DNA from: Sphingomonas sp.
GTDB lineage: Bacteria > Pseudomonadota > Alphaproteobacteria > Sphingomonadales > Sphingomonadaceae
Length of the DNA: 64,000 bases
Assembly: GCA_019635535.1 (NCBI GenBank)
Contig: JAHBZH010000001.1
Coordinates: 1,018,995-1,082,994 of the forward strand
Reading direction: 5' to 3'
In this document: piece after piece, positions 5,785-11,047 of the stretch
Layout of the letters: every line of letters starts with the position of its first letter
Position numbering within the stretch: the stretch's first letter is position 1
The notes under the pieces: generated by a model
Told to the model about the DNA's origin: nothing
What the model saw: only the letters and a program-made list of their open reading frames with translations
Database searches by the model: none
Translations under genes and position numbers: made by a program

Positions 5785-5885
5785 GTGCGGCCTTCTCCTT
5801 TGCTGCGGCGCAATATGCAAGTCGCGTCGTTGCAACCAAGCGGAGGCAGGCGCATTGTGCGCAGGACAGCGGAGGAGTGCGTCGA

Positions 5886-6794
5886 ATGCGTTTCGGGGAC
5901 CGCAGGACCAGCGACAATGTGGAAAGCCAGCGCGGGCAGAGCTTCGGCGGGCGCGGCGGCGGTGGGCTCGGTGGTGCCGGCGCGAGCATGCTGTTCGGCC
6001 TGGTCGCCAGCCGGTTCGGCATTGGCGGGGTCATCGTGCTCGCCCTCCTCTTCTTTGCCTTCGGCGGCGGATTGGGCGACCTGCTCGGCGGCGGCGGGCA
6101 GCGGGCGCTGGCGCCGCAGGAGGCACGGCCAGGGGCGCAGCCGGCCGGCAATGTCTGCCAATCGGACGAGGTGACGCGCTTCTCCTGCCAGGTGCTCGCC
6201 TCCACCGAGGAGCAATGGGGCGCGATGTTCGCCGCGAACGGATCGCGCTACACGCCGCCGCGCATGGTCTTCTACGACCGGCGCGGCAGCTCGGGCTGCG
6301 GCGCGGCGGATTCGGCGATGGGGCCGTTCTATTGCCCAGCCGACCAGCGCATCTATCTCGACACCCAATTCTTCCGCGAGCTGGCGCAGCGTTTCCGGGC
6401 GCCGGGCGATTTCGCCCAAGCCTATGTGATCGCGCACGAGGTCGGCCACCATATCCAGACGATCACCGGCGTCACCGATCAGGTCCGCCGTGCGCAGCAG
6501 GCGGTCGGCCAGACGCAGGGCAACGCCCTGCAGGTGCGGATGGAATTGCAAGCCGATTGCTATGCCGGCGTCTGGGCCTCGCGCGAGCGGGGCATCATGG
6601 ACGAAGGCGATCTGGAGGAGGGCATGGGCGCCGCCGCCGCGATCGGCGACGATACGCTGCAGCGCGCCGCGCAGGGCACGGTCGTGCCCGAAAGCTTCAC
6701 CCACGGCACTTCGGCCCAACGCCAGGAGGCGCTGATGCGCGGCTTCCGGGGCGGCGGGCCCGCGGCGTGCGATGCCTATATGCAGGGAGTCTGA
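5886..6794 (+). CDS. Neutral zinc metallopeptidase (YpfJ family)
   Basis: GPFYCPAD, AHEVGHHIQ, ELQADCYAG, HGTS. Confidence 0.88.
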   Translation: MRFGDRRTSDNVESQRGQSFGGRGGGGLGGAGASMLFGLVASRFGIGGVIVLALLFFAFGGGLGDLLGGGGQRALAPQEARPGAQPAGNVCQSDEVTRFSCQVLASTEEQWGAMFAANGSRYTPPRMVFYDRRGSSGCGAADSAMGPFYCPADQRIYLDTQFFRELAQRFRAPGDFAQAYVIAHEVGHHIQTITGVTDQVRRAQQAVGQTQGNALQVRMELQADCYAGVWASRERGIMDEGDLEEGMGAAAAIGDDTLQRAAQGTVVPESFTHGTSAQRQEALMRGFRGGGPAACDAYMQGV

Positions 6795-6820
6795 GCATCG
6801 GGTCGCACGCCCGCATGTCG

Positions 6821-6862
6821 AATAGAAGAGCGCCGGCGTGGCGGCTGCTGCCACGCCGGCGC
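6821..6862 (-). terminator. Intrinsic terminator for a leftward transcript
   Basis: Perfect 13-bp stem (6830-6842 with 6850-6862) followed on - by TCTTCTATT. Confidence 0.65.
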
Positions 6863-6962
6863 GGACGGACGAGCAAATGGGGAGAGTCGTCCATCTTTTC
6901 GAAGCGGCCCGGAGATACGCGATCGGACCGTTCGAGCGCCTCTTCTCACTAATGCGAATTAA
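6821..6962 (-). ncRNA. Candidate small RNA of about 140 nt
   Basis: Bounded by a sigma70-like promoter and a terminator; internal hairpin with a C-rich loop; no credible ORF. Confidence 0.5.
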
Positions 6963-6996
6963 TTGCAATAGTGATTTTCAGCTATTCCGGATGCAA
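6951..6996 (-). promoter_or_regulatory. Sigma70-like promoter overlapped by a Fur-box-like palindrome
   Basis: On -: TTGCAT (6996-6991), 17-nt spacer, CACTAT (6973-6968); TGCGA-ATTAA-TTGCA at 6953-6967. Confidence 0.45.
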
Positions 6997-7016
6997 TGTC
7001 GATTTCGGATTCGAGT

Positions 7017-7604
7017 ATGACCGATGATCCCACTTTCTTCTCCGACGAGGCCGCGTTCCGCCGCTGGCTGGCAGCGAACCACGCCGATGCGGGCGAGCTG
7101 ATCGTCGGCTTCTGGAAGAAGGGCAGCGGCACGCCGTCGATCGACTGGCCGCAGGCGCGCGACCAGGCCTTGTGCTTCGGCTGGATCGACGGGGTGCGCA
7201 CCTCGCTCGGGCCGGAAAGCTACAAGATCCGCTTCACGCCGCGCCGGCCGGGAAGCATCTGGAGCCGGGTCAATATCGCGCGGTTCGAGACGTTGAAGGA
7301 GGCGGGGGCGATGACGCCGGCCGGCGAGAAGGCTTTCGCCGAGGGCAAGGAACGGACCGACCATTATTCCTACGAGAATGAGGAGCGCGCGCTGAGCGCC
7401 GAGGAAGAGGCGCTGTTCCGCGCCAACCCGGCGGCCTGGGCCGATTTCGAGAAGCGCCCGCCTTCCTACCGCAAGCCCGTCCTTCACTGGGTGACGAGTG
7501 CGAAGAAGCCGGAGACTCGCGCGCGGCGGCTGGCGACGTTGATCGCGGACAGCGCGGCGGGGCGCAAGATCGGAGGCATGGAGATCGGCCGGAAGAAGGG
7601 CTGA
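7017..7604 (+). CDS. YdeI/OmpD-associated family protein
   Basis: ALCFGWIDG, RFTPRRPGSIWS, C-terminal SAKKPETRARRL. Confidence 0.85.
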   Translation: MTDDPTFFSDEAAFRRWLAANHADAGELIVGFWKKGSGTPSIDWPQARDQALCFGWIDGVRTSLGPESYKIRFTPRRPGSIWSRVNIARFETLKEAGAMTPAGEKAFAEGKERTDHYSYENEERALSAEEEALFRANPAAWADFEKRPPSYRKPVLHWVTSAKKPETRARRLATLIADSAAGRKIGGMEIGRKKG

Positions 7605-7606
7605 TC

Positions 7607-10600
7607 CTATTCCGCCGCGAGCAGGCGCTCGGCCCCGCCCAGATCGACGCTGACCAGCCGGCTGACGCCCTTCTCCACCATCGTCACGCCGAACAGGCGG
7701 TGCATGCGGCTCATCGTCACGGCATTGTGAGTGACGATGAGGTAACGCGTGTCGGTCTCGCCCGTCATTCGGTCGAGCAGATCGCAGAACCGCTCGATAT
7801 TGGCGTCGTCCAATGGCGCGTCCACCTCGTCGAGGACGCAGATCGGCGCCGGATTGGTGAGGAAGAGCGCGAAGATGAGGGCGATGGCGGTCAATGCCTG
7901 CTCCCCGCCGGACAGCAAAGTGAGGGTGGCGAGGCGCTTGCCGGGTGGCTGCGCCATGATCTCCAGCCCCGCCTCCAGCGGATCGTCCGATTCGACCAGC
8001 TCCAGATGCGCCTGGCCGCCCTCGAACAAAGTGGTGAAGAGGCTGCGGAAATGGCGGTCCACATCCTGGAACGCGGCGAGAAGCCGGGCGCGGCCCTCAC
8101 GGTTGAGGCTGCCGATCGAGCCGCGCAGGCGGTGGATCGCCTGCCCCAGTTCCTCGCGTTCTGCCTGGCTGGCGAGATGGCTCTCCTCCAGCTCGGTGAG
8201 CTCGCTTTCGGCGACGAGATTGACCGGGCCGATCCGCTCGCGCTCCTGATTGGCGCGCTCGAGCCGGGTCGATTCGACCTGGACGACCTCGATCGACTCC
8301 TCCTCGAAGCCGACTCGTTCGGGGAGCAAAGGCGGCGGACATTCGAACTTCTCGCCGGAGATGCGGGCCATTTCGATCCGCCGGGCGTCCTGCGCCTCGG
8401 CGCGGGCGGCGGCGCCGGCGCGCGCCTCGCGGCAGGCGGCTAGCGTCTCGCCGGCCTCGGCCAGTTTGACCTCGGTCTCACGCAGCCTGTCTTCGCCCGC
8501 CCGCTCGTGCGCGGCGGCGGCACGCGCGGCTTCGGCGGCCTCGGCCGATTCGTCGGTCAGCGCGGCGATGCGCTGCTCGAAATCGTCCGGCGCGGCGGCG
8601 AGCGTTTCCGCTTCCTTCTCGGCATCGGCGATGCGGCGGCCGAACTCGGCGTCGCGCTTCTCGGCGTCGCCCGCCCGCGCGCGCCAGTCGGCCTGCTCCT
8701 TCCTGGCCGCCTCGGCGCGCTGTCGGTCGGCGGCGACGCCTCTCGCATGCGTGGCGGCCTCGGCACGCAACTCGGCGAGCGCGGCCTGCGCGGTCTCGGC
8801 GGCGGCGCGCAGCTCGGCCACCTTCACCTCGGTCGCGGCGGCATCGGGCAGGGTGGCCCAGAGCGATTCCGCTTCATCGCGGGCCTTCACCGCGTCGCGC
8901 AGATCGTCCTGTGCGGCCTCGGCACGTTCCTTGAGGCCGACGCGGCGCACGTCGAGCCGCTCGATCTCGACCGTGGCGGCATTCTCCGCCCGGCCAGCCT
9001 CGCGGATCGCCGCACCGGCTTGGGTTTCGCCCCGCCGCGCGGCTTCGGCGGCGGCGCGGGCGGCGTCCATGACCGCCAGCGCCTTTGCGGTGCGCGTTTC
9101 CGCATCTTCCACCGACCTGGCGGCGGCCGGCATGGCCTGCTCAATCTCGGCGAGGCGGTTGACCCGGATCAGCCGCTCGGCGGCGGCGGCGCCGAGGCCG
9201 CTCGCGACATAGCCGTCCCAGCGGCGCAGCTTCCCATCCAGGGTGACGAGGCGCTGGCCCACGGCGAGCGCGATCGTGCCGTCGTCGCTCTCGGTCACGC
9301 CGATCTGGCACAGGCGGCGCAGCAGGGCGGCGGGCGCCTCGACATGGTCGGCGAGCGCGGCGCAGCCGGCGGGCAGCGGCGGATCGCCCGGCAGCGGCGC
9401 GGCCCCGGCCCAGCGGCGCGGTCCGTTCTCGGTCAGCGCGGCATCCAGATCCTCGCCCAATGCGGCGGCGAGTGCGCGCTCATAGCCCGTCGCGGCGCGG
9501 ACATGATTGATCGCCCGGTCGCCGCCGGAGGTCTCGACCGCCTTGATCAGCGCCTTCGCCTCGGACTGTAACGCCGCCAGCGCGGCGCGGGCGGCGGCGG
9601 CTTCGCTTTCGGCGGCGTCGCGCGCTTCGGCGGCCTGCTGCCGTTCGGCTTCGGCCGCCGCGATCGCCGTGCCCGCCTCGGCGAGCCGCGCTTCGGCGGC
9701 TTCGCGGTCGGCGCGGGCCTGAGTCAGCGCCGCGTGCAGCGGCGCGGCATCCCCAAGCGCGGCGACCTGATCGCGGATGCGCTGCGCTTCGCTTTCGGCG
9801 CGGGCGAGTTTCTGTAGCGCCGCGTCCAGCGCGGCCTGCGCCACCCGTGCCTCGGCCTGTTCGGCGGCCTGGACGGCGCGGGCCTGACCCAAGGCGGTTT
9901 CGGCCGCGCGGGCGGCACCCTCCTGCTCGACGGTGCGGATGTCGATCGTGCCGCGCCGGCTTTCGGCATCGGCGAGGCGGGCGGCGATGCTGGTCAACTC
10001 CTCGTCCAGCCGGGCGAGCGCCGTCGCCGCGTCGTCGCGCAATGCCGCCTCGCGTTCGCGGTCGGCGACGAAGGTGCGCTGCCGCGCCGCCAGCTCGTCG
10101 ATCCGGCGCCGGATGCCGTCTTGTTCGGTGCGCAGGGCGGCAAGCTTGTGGGCCAGATCGGAGGCACGCTCACGCGCCGCTTCGGCGGCGCGGCGCTTGT
10201 CGGCGAGCTCGGTGGCGGCCTGGGTCTGCCAGGCGGCGGCGGCGCGCTGCGCCTCGGCCGCGATGCCGACCGCCGCCCCGGCGGCCTGCGCCTCCTGCTT
10301 CGCGGCCTCGGCGGCGGCCGCCGCCTCGCGCCAGCGCGCGAAGATCAGCCGGCCCTCGGCCACGCGGATCTGATCGGACAGCTTGCGGTAGCGTTCGGCG
10401 GCGCGGGCCTGGCGCTTCAGCGCGCTGGCGCGCAGCTCCATGTCGGCCAGCACTCCGTCGAGCCGGACCAGATTGGCCTCGGTCGCGCGCAATTTCTGCT
10501 CGGCATCCTTGCGGCGGACATGGAGGCCGGAGATCCCCGCCGCCTCCTCCAGCATCATCCGCCGCTCGGTCGGCTTGGCGGCGATGACGGCGCTGATCCG

Positions 10601-11047
10601 GCCCTGGCTGACCAGGGCCGGTGAATGGGCGCCGGTCGCGGCGTCCGCGAAGAGCAAGGCGACGTCCTTGGCGCGCACGTCGCGGCCGTTGACCCGATAG
10701 GCGGAGCCCGCGCCGCGCTCGATCCGTCGGGTCACCTCGACCTCGCCGGCCGGGGCGAAACCGGCATCGCCGCCGACATCCCCCTCCTGCCGCTCGACCA
10801 ACAGCGAGACTTCGGCGAAATCGCGCGGCGGCCGGGTCGCGGTGCCGGCGAAGATCACGTCGTCCATCCCCGCGCCGCGCATCGATTTGGGCGAGCTTTC
10901 GCCCATCACCCAACGGATCGCCTCCAGCACGTTGGACTTGCCGCAGCCATTGGGGCCGACCACGCCGGTCAGGCCGGGCTCGACGATCAGCTCGGCCGGC
11001 TCGACGAAGCTCTTGAATCCCGAAAGCTTGAGGCGTTTTACCTGCAA
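7607..11047 (-). CDS. smc: Chromosome segregation protein SMC
   Basis: GFKSF, GPNGCGKSN Walker A, long coiled coil, LSGGE signature, LDEVDAPLD. Confidence 0.97.
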   Translation of the reverse strand: MQVKRLKLSGFKSFVEPAELIVEPGLTGVVGPNGCGKSNVLEAIRWVMGESSPKSMRGAGMDDVIFAGTATRPPRDFAEVSLLVERQEGDVGGDAGFAPAGEVEVTRRIERGAGSAYRVNGRDVRAKDVALLFADAATGAHSPALVSQGRISAVIAAKPTERRMMLEEAAGISGLHVRRKDAEQKLRATEANLVRLDGVLADMELRASALKRQARAAERYRKLSDQIRVAEGRLIFARWREAAAAAEAAKQEAQAAGAAVGIAAEAQRAAAAWQTQAATELADKRRAAEAARERASDLAHKLAALRTEQDGIRRRIDELAARQRTFVADREREAALRDDAATALARLDEELTSIAARLADAESRRGTIDIRTVEQEGAARAAETALGQARAVQAAEQAEARVAQAALDAALQKLARAESEAQRIRDQVAALGDAAPLHAALTQARADREAAEARLAEAGTAIAAAEAERQQAAEARDAAESEAAAARAALAALQSEAKALIKAVETSGGDRAINHVRAATGYERALAAALGEDLDAALTENGPRRWAGAAPLPGDPPLPAGCAALADHVEAPAALLRRLCQIGVTESDDGTIALAVGQRLVTLDGKLRRWDGYVASGLGAAAAERLIRVNRLAEIEQAMPAAARSVEDAETRTAKALAVMDAARAAAEAARRGETQAGAAIREAGRAENAATVEIERLDVRRVGLKERAEAAQDDLRDAVKARDEAESLWATLPDAAATEVKVAELRAAAETAQAALAELRAEAATHARGVAADRQRAEAARKEQADWRARAGDAEKRDAEFGRRIADAEKEAETLAAAPDDFEQRIAALTDESAEAAEAARAAAAHERAGEDRLRETEVKLAEAGETLAACREARAGAAARAEAQDARRIEMARISGEKFECPPPLLPERVGFEEESIEVVQVESTRLERANQERERIGPVNLVAESELTELEESHLASQAEREELGQAIHRLRGSIGSLNREGRARLLAAFQDVDRHFRSLFTTLFEGGQAHLELVESDDPLEAGLEIMAQPPGKRLATLTLLSGGEQALTAIALIFALFLTNPAPICVLDEVDAPLDDANIERFCDLLDRMTGETDTRYLIVTHNAVTMSRMHRLFGVTMVEKGVSRLVSVDLGGAERLLAAE

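Follow-up and report, generated by a model that had tools for sequence, protein, structure and literature searches.

The locus considered here raises the question of whether the short interval between a metallopeptidase gene and a ydeI-like gene of Sphingomonas sp. holds a small RNA gene and, if so, whether this gene is controlled by Fur. The window (that is, the whole stretch of 64,000 nucleotides that was analysed) contains a gene for a YpfJ-type zinc metallopeptidase (ypfJ; 5877-6794, plus strand; NCBIfam NF050010, E = 5e-100), a gene of the OmdA/YdeI family (ydeI-like; from 6996 or 7017 to 7604, plus strand) and smc (7607-11047, minus strand). Between the first two, the original prediction had placed an independent small RNA on the minus strand that would be gated by a Fur box, and all comparative tests that were run support this core proposal. 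On the basis of these results, the segment from 6971 to 6821 on the minus strand is probably, on balance, a free-standing gene whose product would be a trans-acting small RNA (about 140 nt), with a Fur box at its 5' edge.

Read in the direction of its presumed transcription, the unit begins with Fur-alpha box 1, a 23-bp palindrome (CTATTGCAATTAATTCGCATTAG in the minus-strand reading) at 6949-6971 with a 19-bp core at 6951-6969. The palindrome TGCGAATTAATTGCA that had been proposed at 6953-6967 is present, and it turned out to be part of this larger box, which runs over the full 23 bp from 6971 to 6949. The predicted small RNA (6821-6960, minus strand; about 135-150 nt) would carry three hairpins. 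A middle hairpin (UCGAACGGUCCG ... CGGGCCGCUUCGA; 6899-6935, minus strand), which occurs only in the long class A form of the RNA described below, was missing from the layout of the transcript as first drawn, in which the other hairpin and the terminator were correctly placed. The A-rich linker GAAAAG (6900-6895) leads to hairpin 2 (6864-6895, minus strand), in which the predicted GGACGA/UCGUCC pairing and its exposed loop were recovered; the stem is in fact 9-10 bp long (GAUGGACGA/UCGUCCGUC, 6895-6864) and carries the pyrimidine-rich loop CUCUCCCCAUUUGC (6886-6873, minus strand), the presumed seed. The unit ends with an intrinsic terminator (6821-6862, minus strand), whose perfect 13-bp stem (6862-6830) contains 12 G-C pairs and is followed by the T-rich tail UCUUCUAUU (6829-6821). 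This element had been predicted exactly so, and the terminator scan confirmed it, on the minus strand, as the sole terminator-like site on either strand within 6000-8000. The fold of the 151-nt stretch had a predicted energy of -71.5 kcal/mol (z = -5.5), and none of 200 shuffled sequences was as stable. The box, the loop hairpin and the terminator all lie far above chance expectation.

Comparison of homologues provided further information on the structure and its strand. In an alignment of 30 sequences (A3), 94.7% of pair cells were paired and 13 pairs had changed on both sides; it should be noted that A3 was fitted to the covariance model and is hence biased toward the structure. None of 500 shuffles reached any of the five measures used, and pairing fell to 28-43% when the 3' partners were slid by one to three columns. 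Compensatory stems are also plain in the raw sequences (for example, GGACGA/UCGUCC, GGGCGGC/GCCCGCCC, GACGGGC/GCCCGUC, GGCGGG/CCCGCC and GGACGGC/GUCGUCC). For hairpin 2, changes on both sides were found in eight of nine pairs, with 91.7% of cells paired; 27 G-U cells stood against no A-C cells, so that this hairpin pairs worse when read on the plus strand. Among class A homologues, the stem of the middle hairpin is compensated as well (GGUCCG/CGGGCC, GGUUCGA/UCGAACC, GGUGCGC/GCGCGCC and GGCUC/GAGCC), and three stem pairs of the terminator covary. The ten bases past the terminator stem contained on average 4.8 T on the minus strand versus 0.5 on the plus strand in the 30 homologues. Since both the G-U cells of hairpin 2 and the T-rich terminator tails point to the minus strand only, the RNA was assigned to this strand. 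No co-directional coding gene lies downstream, where the next gene is convergent or varies between genomes, and the transcript must thus be short. These features argue for an independent short RNA with its own terminator. A coding reading was considered and rejected: two minus-strand open reading frames (6697-6894 and 6776-6949) overrun the terminator into sequence antisense to ypfJ, and their start codons, inspected by eye, are absent from the short-form homologues. A dispersed repeat element was also rejected, because the unit is single-copy in its own genome.

The distribution of the unit was examined by BLAST and then with R1, a covariance model based on alignment A1. From box to terminator, the whole unit was identified in 32 out of 156 species genomes of the genus (E below 1e-17). 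The carriers belong to Sphingosinicella/Allosphingosinicella, including the type strain Sphingosinicella terrae KCTC 52780 and Sphingosinicella sp. LHD-64, whose assembly is not labelled as a metagenome bin. No other genus was found to have the unit when 401 genomes were sampled across 112 genera of the family, and as judged from these genomes the RNA family is restricted to one clade of one genus. Two forms could be distinguished. Class A, to which the copy in the window belongs, is about 140 nt long and is marked by the additional middle hairpin and by the loop CUCUCCCCAUUUGC or near variants of it; class B is about 105 nt long with the loop CAUUnCCUCUUCCCAAGG. The C/U-rich loop and box 1 were kept in 30/30 aligned homologues. 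No family match could be detected in Rfam for the window region or for eight homologue loci; the best overlapping match, ctRNA_pGA1, had E = 2.8 and 17.9 bits versus a gathering score of 45. On these grounds, the unit very likely represents a real and previously undescribed small-RNA family.

Several additional observations were made during these searches. Covariance-model matches in other genera were considered as family-wide homologues and rejected, as they were driven by the Fur box alone. The hairpin that follows the boxes in genus g70 (L036, L040 and L044) was also discarded; a better U-tract lies on the opposite strand, which identifies it as the terminator of the neighbouring gene. Two loci of other genera, L032 (G320) and L043 (G419), have a Fur box and, after it, a hairpin whose C-rich loop is of the CCUCCC or CCCCUCCCC type; a terminator comes next in L043. 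Neither arrangement was conserved within its genus in the sample searched, and both may be independent analogues. Within the carriers, G492 (L081) has a decayed copy of the unit beside a receptor gene and then an intact one that is headed by a box of its own, G561 carries the unit twice, on separate contigs (one of them L072), and the terminator of G006 (L005/L058) is present as a tandem duplicate. A contig labelled Synechococcus sp. H65.1 (L084) carries a complete unit, which probably reflects contamination by a sphingomonad or a binning error in that assembly. A weak match to the atpB RNA motif inside smc (7739-7839, minus strand; 24.5 bits, gathering score 37.4, E = 0.013) is most likely due to chance.

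To identify the regulator that would act on the unit, the palindrome was compared with other sites of its own genome (G000; 2.75 Mb, 67.8% G+C). The same palindrome was found ahead of bfr, an FTR1-cytochrome c iron permease, the Rrf2/IscR-suf operon, three TonB-dependent receptors (one of them Fiu-like), tonB, a class-V aminotransferase of the cysteine desulfurase type, a ferric-type periplasmic binding protein, nuoA and the 5-aminolevulinate synthase gene hemA. The last two boxes, at C1:1952921 ahead of nuoA and at C1:2068520 ahead of hemA (TTG start), fit an extended Fur-alpha regulon. When a position matrix was trained on ten iron-gene sites of this genome, with the site under study excluded (consensus ATTGCGAATCATTCGCAAT), the box at 6951-6969 scored 21.9 bits and ranked tenth genome-wide, behind nine training sites and ahead of one; it was the top-scoring site outside the training set. 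The genome also encodes a Fur homologue with 41% identity to Escherichia coli Fur and a second, more distant Fur-family protein. A Fur-alpha regulon had been predicted for Sphingomonadales and Caulobacter (Rodionov et al., 2006; PMC1698941), with protein-coding members only and no RNA gene. The sites found here agree with it both in the box, a 19-bp palindrome related to AATGATAATnATTATCATT that recurs upstream of iron genes, and in the gene set (TonB-dependent receptors, fbp, ftr, tonB, bfr, suf, hemA and nuo); the difference is that the box in the window heads a predicted RNA gene. By its regulon and its sequence, the 23-bp palindrome is a Fur box of the host organism. The likeness to a Caulobacter-type Fur consensus, which had been noted in the original prediction, was sound on account of regulon content, matrix rank and the encoded Fur homologue.

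The promoter of the original prediction was not supported as drawn. Its -35 hexamer TTGCAT (6996-6991, minus strand) and -10 hexamer CACTAT (6973-6968, minus strand), separated by 17 nt, are both present; their occurrence is at chance level, and the promoter scan selected TCGACA-N17-GAAAAT instead. The position of TTGCAT is not conserved either: in the near relative G549 no more than 8 nt separate the same hexamer from the box, and at this place the sequence of the other relatives is unrelated. The only conserved promoter-like element was CTATTG at the left edge of box 1 (6966-6973, minus strand), which overlaps CACTAT, is invariant in 29/30 homologues and may act as the -10. No conserved -35 could be observed upstream of it, and none of the -35/-10 pairs inside or after the box, the Caulobacter-type TTGAC-N16-GCTANA or the ECF-type motifs that were looked for by eye was conserved. 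G481 has TTGAAC at a Caulobacter-like distance, with nothing comparable in the other genomes. The start site would be expected at box 1.

The presumed seed was paired against 2393 crude start regions of its own genome (mean -11.2 kcal/mol, s.d. 3.4). The first rank (-23.8 kcal/mol) was taken by a c554-like multi-haem cytochrome (C1:1413147-1414535) with four CxxCH motifs by script count and more by eye, and the predicted pairing covers GCAGAUGGGGGG, start codon included. A dihaem cytochrome c ranked 7, a ten-haem MtrC-like cytochrome ranked 19, and an FAD and 4Fe-4S oxidoreductase that heads the same cluster as the ten-haem protein ranked 38. Thus, three out of five proteins with two or more CxxCH motifs ranked 1, 7 and 19 (hypergeometric P = 5e-6). 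This enrichment was reproduced by none of 60 shuffled loops and by none of four control sequences (the 16S anti-Shine-Dalgarno sequence, two class B loops and the reversed loop). The rank-1 site was kept in 12 class A genomes at -17.8 to -26.1 kcal/mol, and nearly all carriers use the rare GGG as the second codon of this cytochrome. Pairing of this site in class B genomes was at background level (-10 to -17 kcal/mol against the mean of -11.2), and the site of the rank-19 cytochrome was only moderately conserved. The classical iron-sparing targets ranked low among the 2393 regions (sdhB 353, bfr 2136, nuoA 1762 and sufB 1097), and iscR was not predicted. It should be noted that the enrichment of cytochromes was noticed after the ranked list had been viewed, so that cytochrome targeting is a lead and not a result; pairing of the loop with the cytochrome start region is suggestive only. 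The cluster itself (C1:1398420-1414535; L112 and L142) comprises two operons and encodes multi-haem cytochromes of the c554-like and MtrC-like types (ten CxxCH motifs in each of the two largest), an HbpS-like protein, an FAD/cNMP/4Fe-4S oxidoreductase and a possible outer-membrane protein without Pfam match. Most RNA carriers have conserved this cluster, which is unusual for an aerobic sphingomonad.

How far these data support a Fur-controlled RNA depends on how they are weighed against other readings. It could be argued that the hairpins are DNA-level or neighbour-gene elements (a ypfJ terminator, a repeat or the upstream promoter architecture of a receptor) and that no small RNA exists. The terminator stem is indeed a near-perfect palindrome adjoining the 3' end of ypfJ, and the apparent 'hairpin 1' of the short form, TTGCGAACGGTTCGCAA, proved to be a DNA operator: it was reinterpreted from an RNA helix to a second Fur box of 17-27 bits. 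However, the T-tails follow the stem on the minus strand only, the downstream gene varies between genomes, covariation is seen in both hairpin 2 and the middle hairpin, with wobble pairs confined to one strand, and the unit is single-copy, which make this explanation very unlikely. A second reading accepts the RNA and assigns the box to another gene, as an operator, or the relic of one, of the divergent gene (the receptor in relatives and the ydeI-like gene in the window), with the RNA constitutive or otherwise regulated. In about three quarters of homologues, the opposite strand carries a gene for a Fiu-like catecholate siderophore receptor whose start is about 45 nt away from the box, and on the receptor strand box 1 exactly fills the 17-nt spacer of TTGACA-N17-CAATAG. 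The second strong Fur box TTGCGAACGGTTCGCAA, 31 bp from box 1 and just past the receptor -35, travels with this promoter, being found only where the divergent receptor gene is present (L062, L066, L070 and other class B loci). In addition, no -35 is conserved for the RNA, and in the window the box is located 25-45 nt ahead of the ydeI-like gene.

What argues against this second reading is the behaviour of box 1 where the receptor is gone. Eight units lack a divergent receptor (the window, G021, G572, G549, G561, G562, G481 and G492). TGTCAA was kept wherever the divergent TonB-dependent receptor is present and decayed wherever it is absent; in all eight units TTGACA has decayed (TGAGAA in the window) and the second box is gone (below 7 bits), whereas box 1 is intact in every one of them (21.9-27 bits). 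The gene upstream of the unit in G549 and G572 is smc, which lies on the same strand and stops 69-70 nt before it, so that these two genomes lack any divergent gene; compared with them, the window gained its ydeI-like gene later, by insertion between smc and the box. A separate box about 130 nt away serves the receptor in G481 and G492, and in G561 and G562 the unit comes after the stop codon of a receptor gene that runs in the same direction. Selection has thus kept box 1 with the RNA, and this retention is the strongest argument for Fur control of the RNA. We consider it likely that the small RNA is repressed by Fur, and quite unlikely that the box serves, or once served, the divergent gene alone. 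In the window, the remnant of the receptor promoter, TTCTCA-N17-CAATAG with its decayed -35 at 6943-6948 on the plus strand (TTGACA in relatives), now aims at the ydeI-like gene, which may for this reason be Fur-regulated by accident. A third reading retains Fur repression and gives the RNA a job other than iron sparing, such as tuning outer-membrane transporters or iron uptake in a RusT-like way, or titrating Hfq or another RNA. The loop is a generic anti-Shine-Dalgarno sequence, the classical iron-sparing targets were not predicted, a Fur-boxed receptor gene (C1:660794-662926) is 8th in the pairing list, hfq is within the top 40, and class B loops pair poorly with the cytochrome site. On the other hand, the enrichment of multi-haem cytochromes is specific to the real order of the loop and the site is conserved in class A. 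Such a different job appears unlikely, and an iron-sparing role through cytochrome genes is itself proposed only tentatively, from a post hoc target prediction.

Taken as a Fur-repressed small RNA gene, the unit could work as follows. Box 1 overlaps the -10-like element, the only one that is conserved, and would also cover the likely start site. With iron in ample supply, Fe-Fur would sit on the box and prevent transcription. When iron is scarce, the RNA would be made up to the intrinsic terminator and would fold into the middle hairpin, the hairpin presenting CUCUCCCCAUUUGC and the terminator hairpin. The pyrimidine-rich loop could then pair with G-rich Shine-Dalgarno or start-codon regions and shut down translation, probably with Hfq. 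An hfq gene is present (C1:1917234-1917731), and the terminator U-tail and the A-rich linker are only suggestive of Hfq dependence. The best candidate targets would be the genes of the iron-rich multi-haem cytochrome and Fe-S cluster. With regard to its origin, the gene seems to have emerged next to a Fiu-like siderophore receptor whose promoter is under Fur control, with an operator common to both; when the receptor gene disappeared from the locus, the RNA gene kept this operator. The comparison directly shows the sequence elements, their conservation, covariation and strandedness, the identity of the box by its regulon and its linkage with the RNA, whereas binding by Fur, the position of the start, induction upon iron starvation, dependence on Hfq and the choice of targets are inferred.

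Fur-repressed small RNAs are the standard bacterial route to cut iron use, but in Alphaproteobacteria none is known to be linked directly to Fur. RyhB (RF00057), PrrF1/PrrF2 (RF00444), NrrF, HrrF and BrrF share with the unit the Fur box at the 5' edge, a short non-coding gene and an intrinsic terminator, and the expected logic would also be the same: repression by Fe-Fur, release upon starvation and pairing with mRNAs for iron-rich proteins. However, these RNAs belong to Gamma- and Betaproteobacteria, whereas the RNA of the window comes from a different phylum-level lineage, has no sequence or structure match to any Rfam family and, in relatives, shares its operator with a divergent receptor gene; moreover, their hallmark targets sdh, sodB and bfr are not predicted for it. 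Among alphaproteobacterial RNAs, AbcR/alpha-r15, alpha-r14 and the CcsR 'cuckoo' RNAs pair with ribosome-binding sites through C/U-rich hairpin loops (CCUCC/CUCCC type). None of them is known to have a Fur box, and they are represented in Rfam, yet the RNA of the window matches no Rfam family. IsrR of Staphylococcus and FsrA of Bacillus (PMC9410917) combine a Fur box with C-rich or pyrimidine loops that are predicted to mask G-rich ribosome-binding sites in mRNAs for Fe-S or haem proteins. In contrast, they are Gram-positive RNAs of unrelated sequence with several C-rich regions instead of one loop, and the likeness appears to be one of mode of action, not of descent. RusT of Caulobacter crescentus (PMC11005374) is induced by iron starvation under the control of NtrYX, has no Fur box, lies between lolA and xth, contains four stem-loops and is confined to Caulobacter. 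It resembles the present RNA in being alphaproteobacterial and in having several stem-loops and a terminator; by its description it is set apart from an RNA with three hairpins and a Fur box at the smc/ydeI-ypfJ locus (receptor-ypfJ in relatives).

For Caulobacter, the literature states that the search for a small RNA in the Fur regulon has yielded none (PMC11005374, PMC6120978), and an RNA-seq study reported no Fur box ahead of any iron-induced small RNA (PMC6120978). Our literature search revealed no report of such an RNA for sphingomonads and no transcriptome paper on Sphingosinicella. The unit described here is probably the first directly Fur-controlled small RNA seen in an alphaproteobacterium, as far as can be judged from comparative evidence. 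The fuller picture, that is, a lineage-specific RNA that is the first in the direct Fur regulon of this class, co-opted a receptor operator as a two-way switch and, under iron starvation, silences an iron-expensive cluster of multi-haem cytochrome and Fe-S genes through pairing that spans the start codon, is a possibility in which we place limited confidence. The scope of the finding is one clade of a little-studied soil genus, and its interest is for iron control in alphaproteobacteria. If true, it would supply the 'missing' negative arm of Fur that Caulobacter workers have sought without success. The unit offers a concrete and testable case of a Fur-linked small RNA in culturable strains, and it also illustrates how an RNA gene can arise beside an existing operator and retain this operator once the original gene has left.
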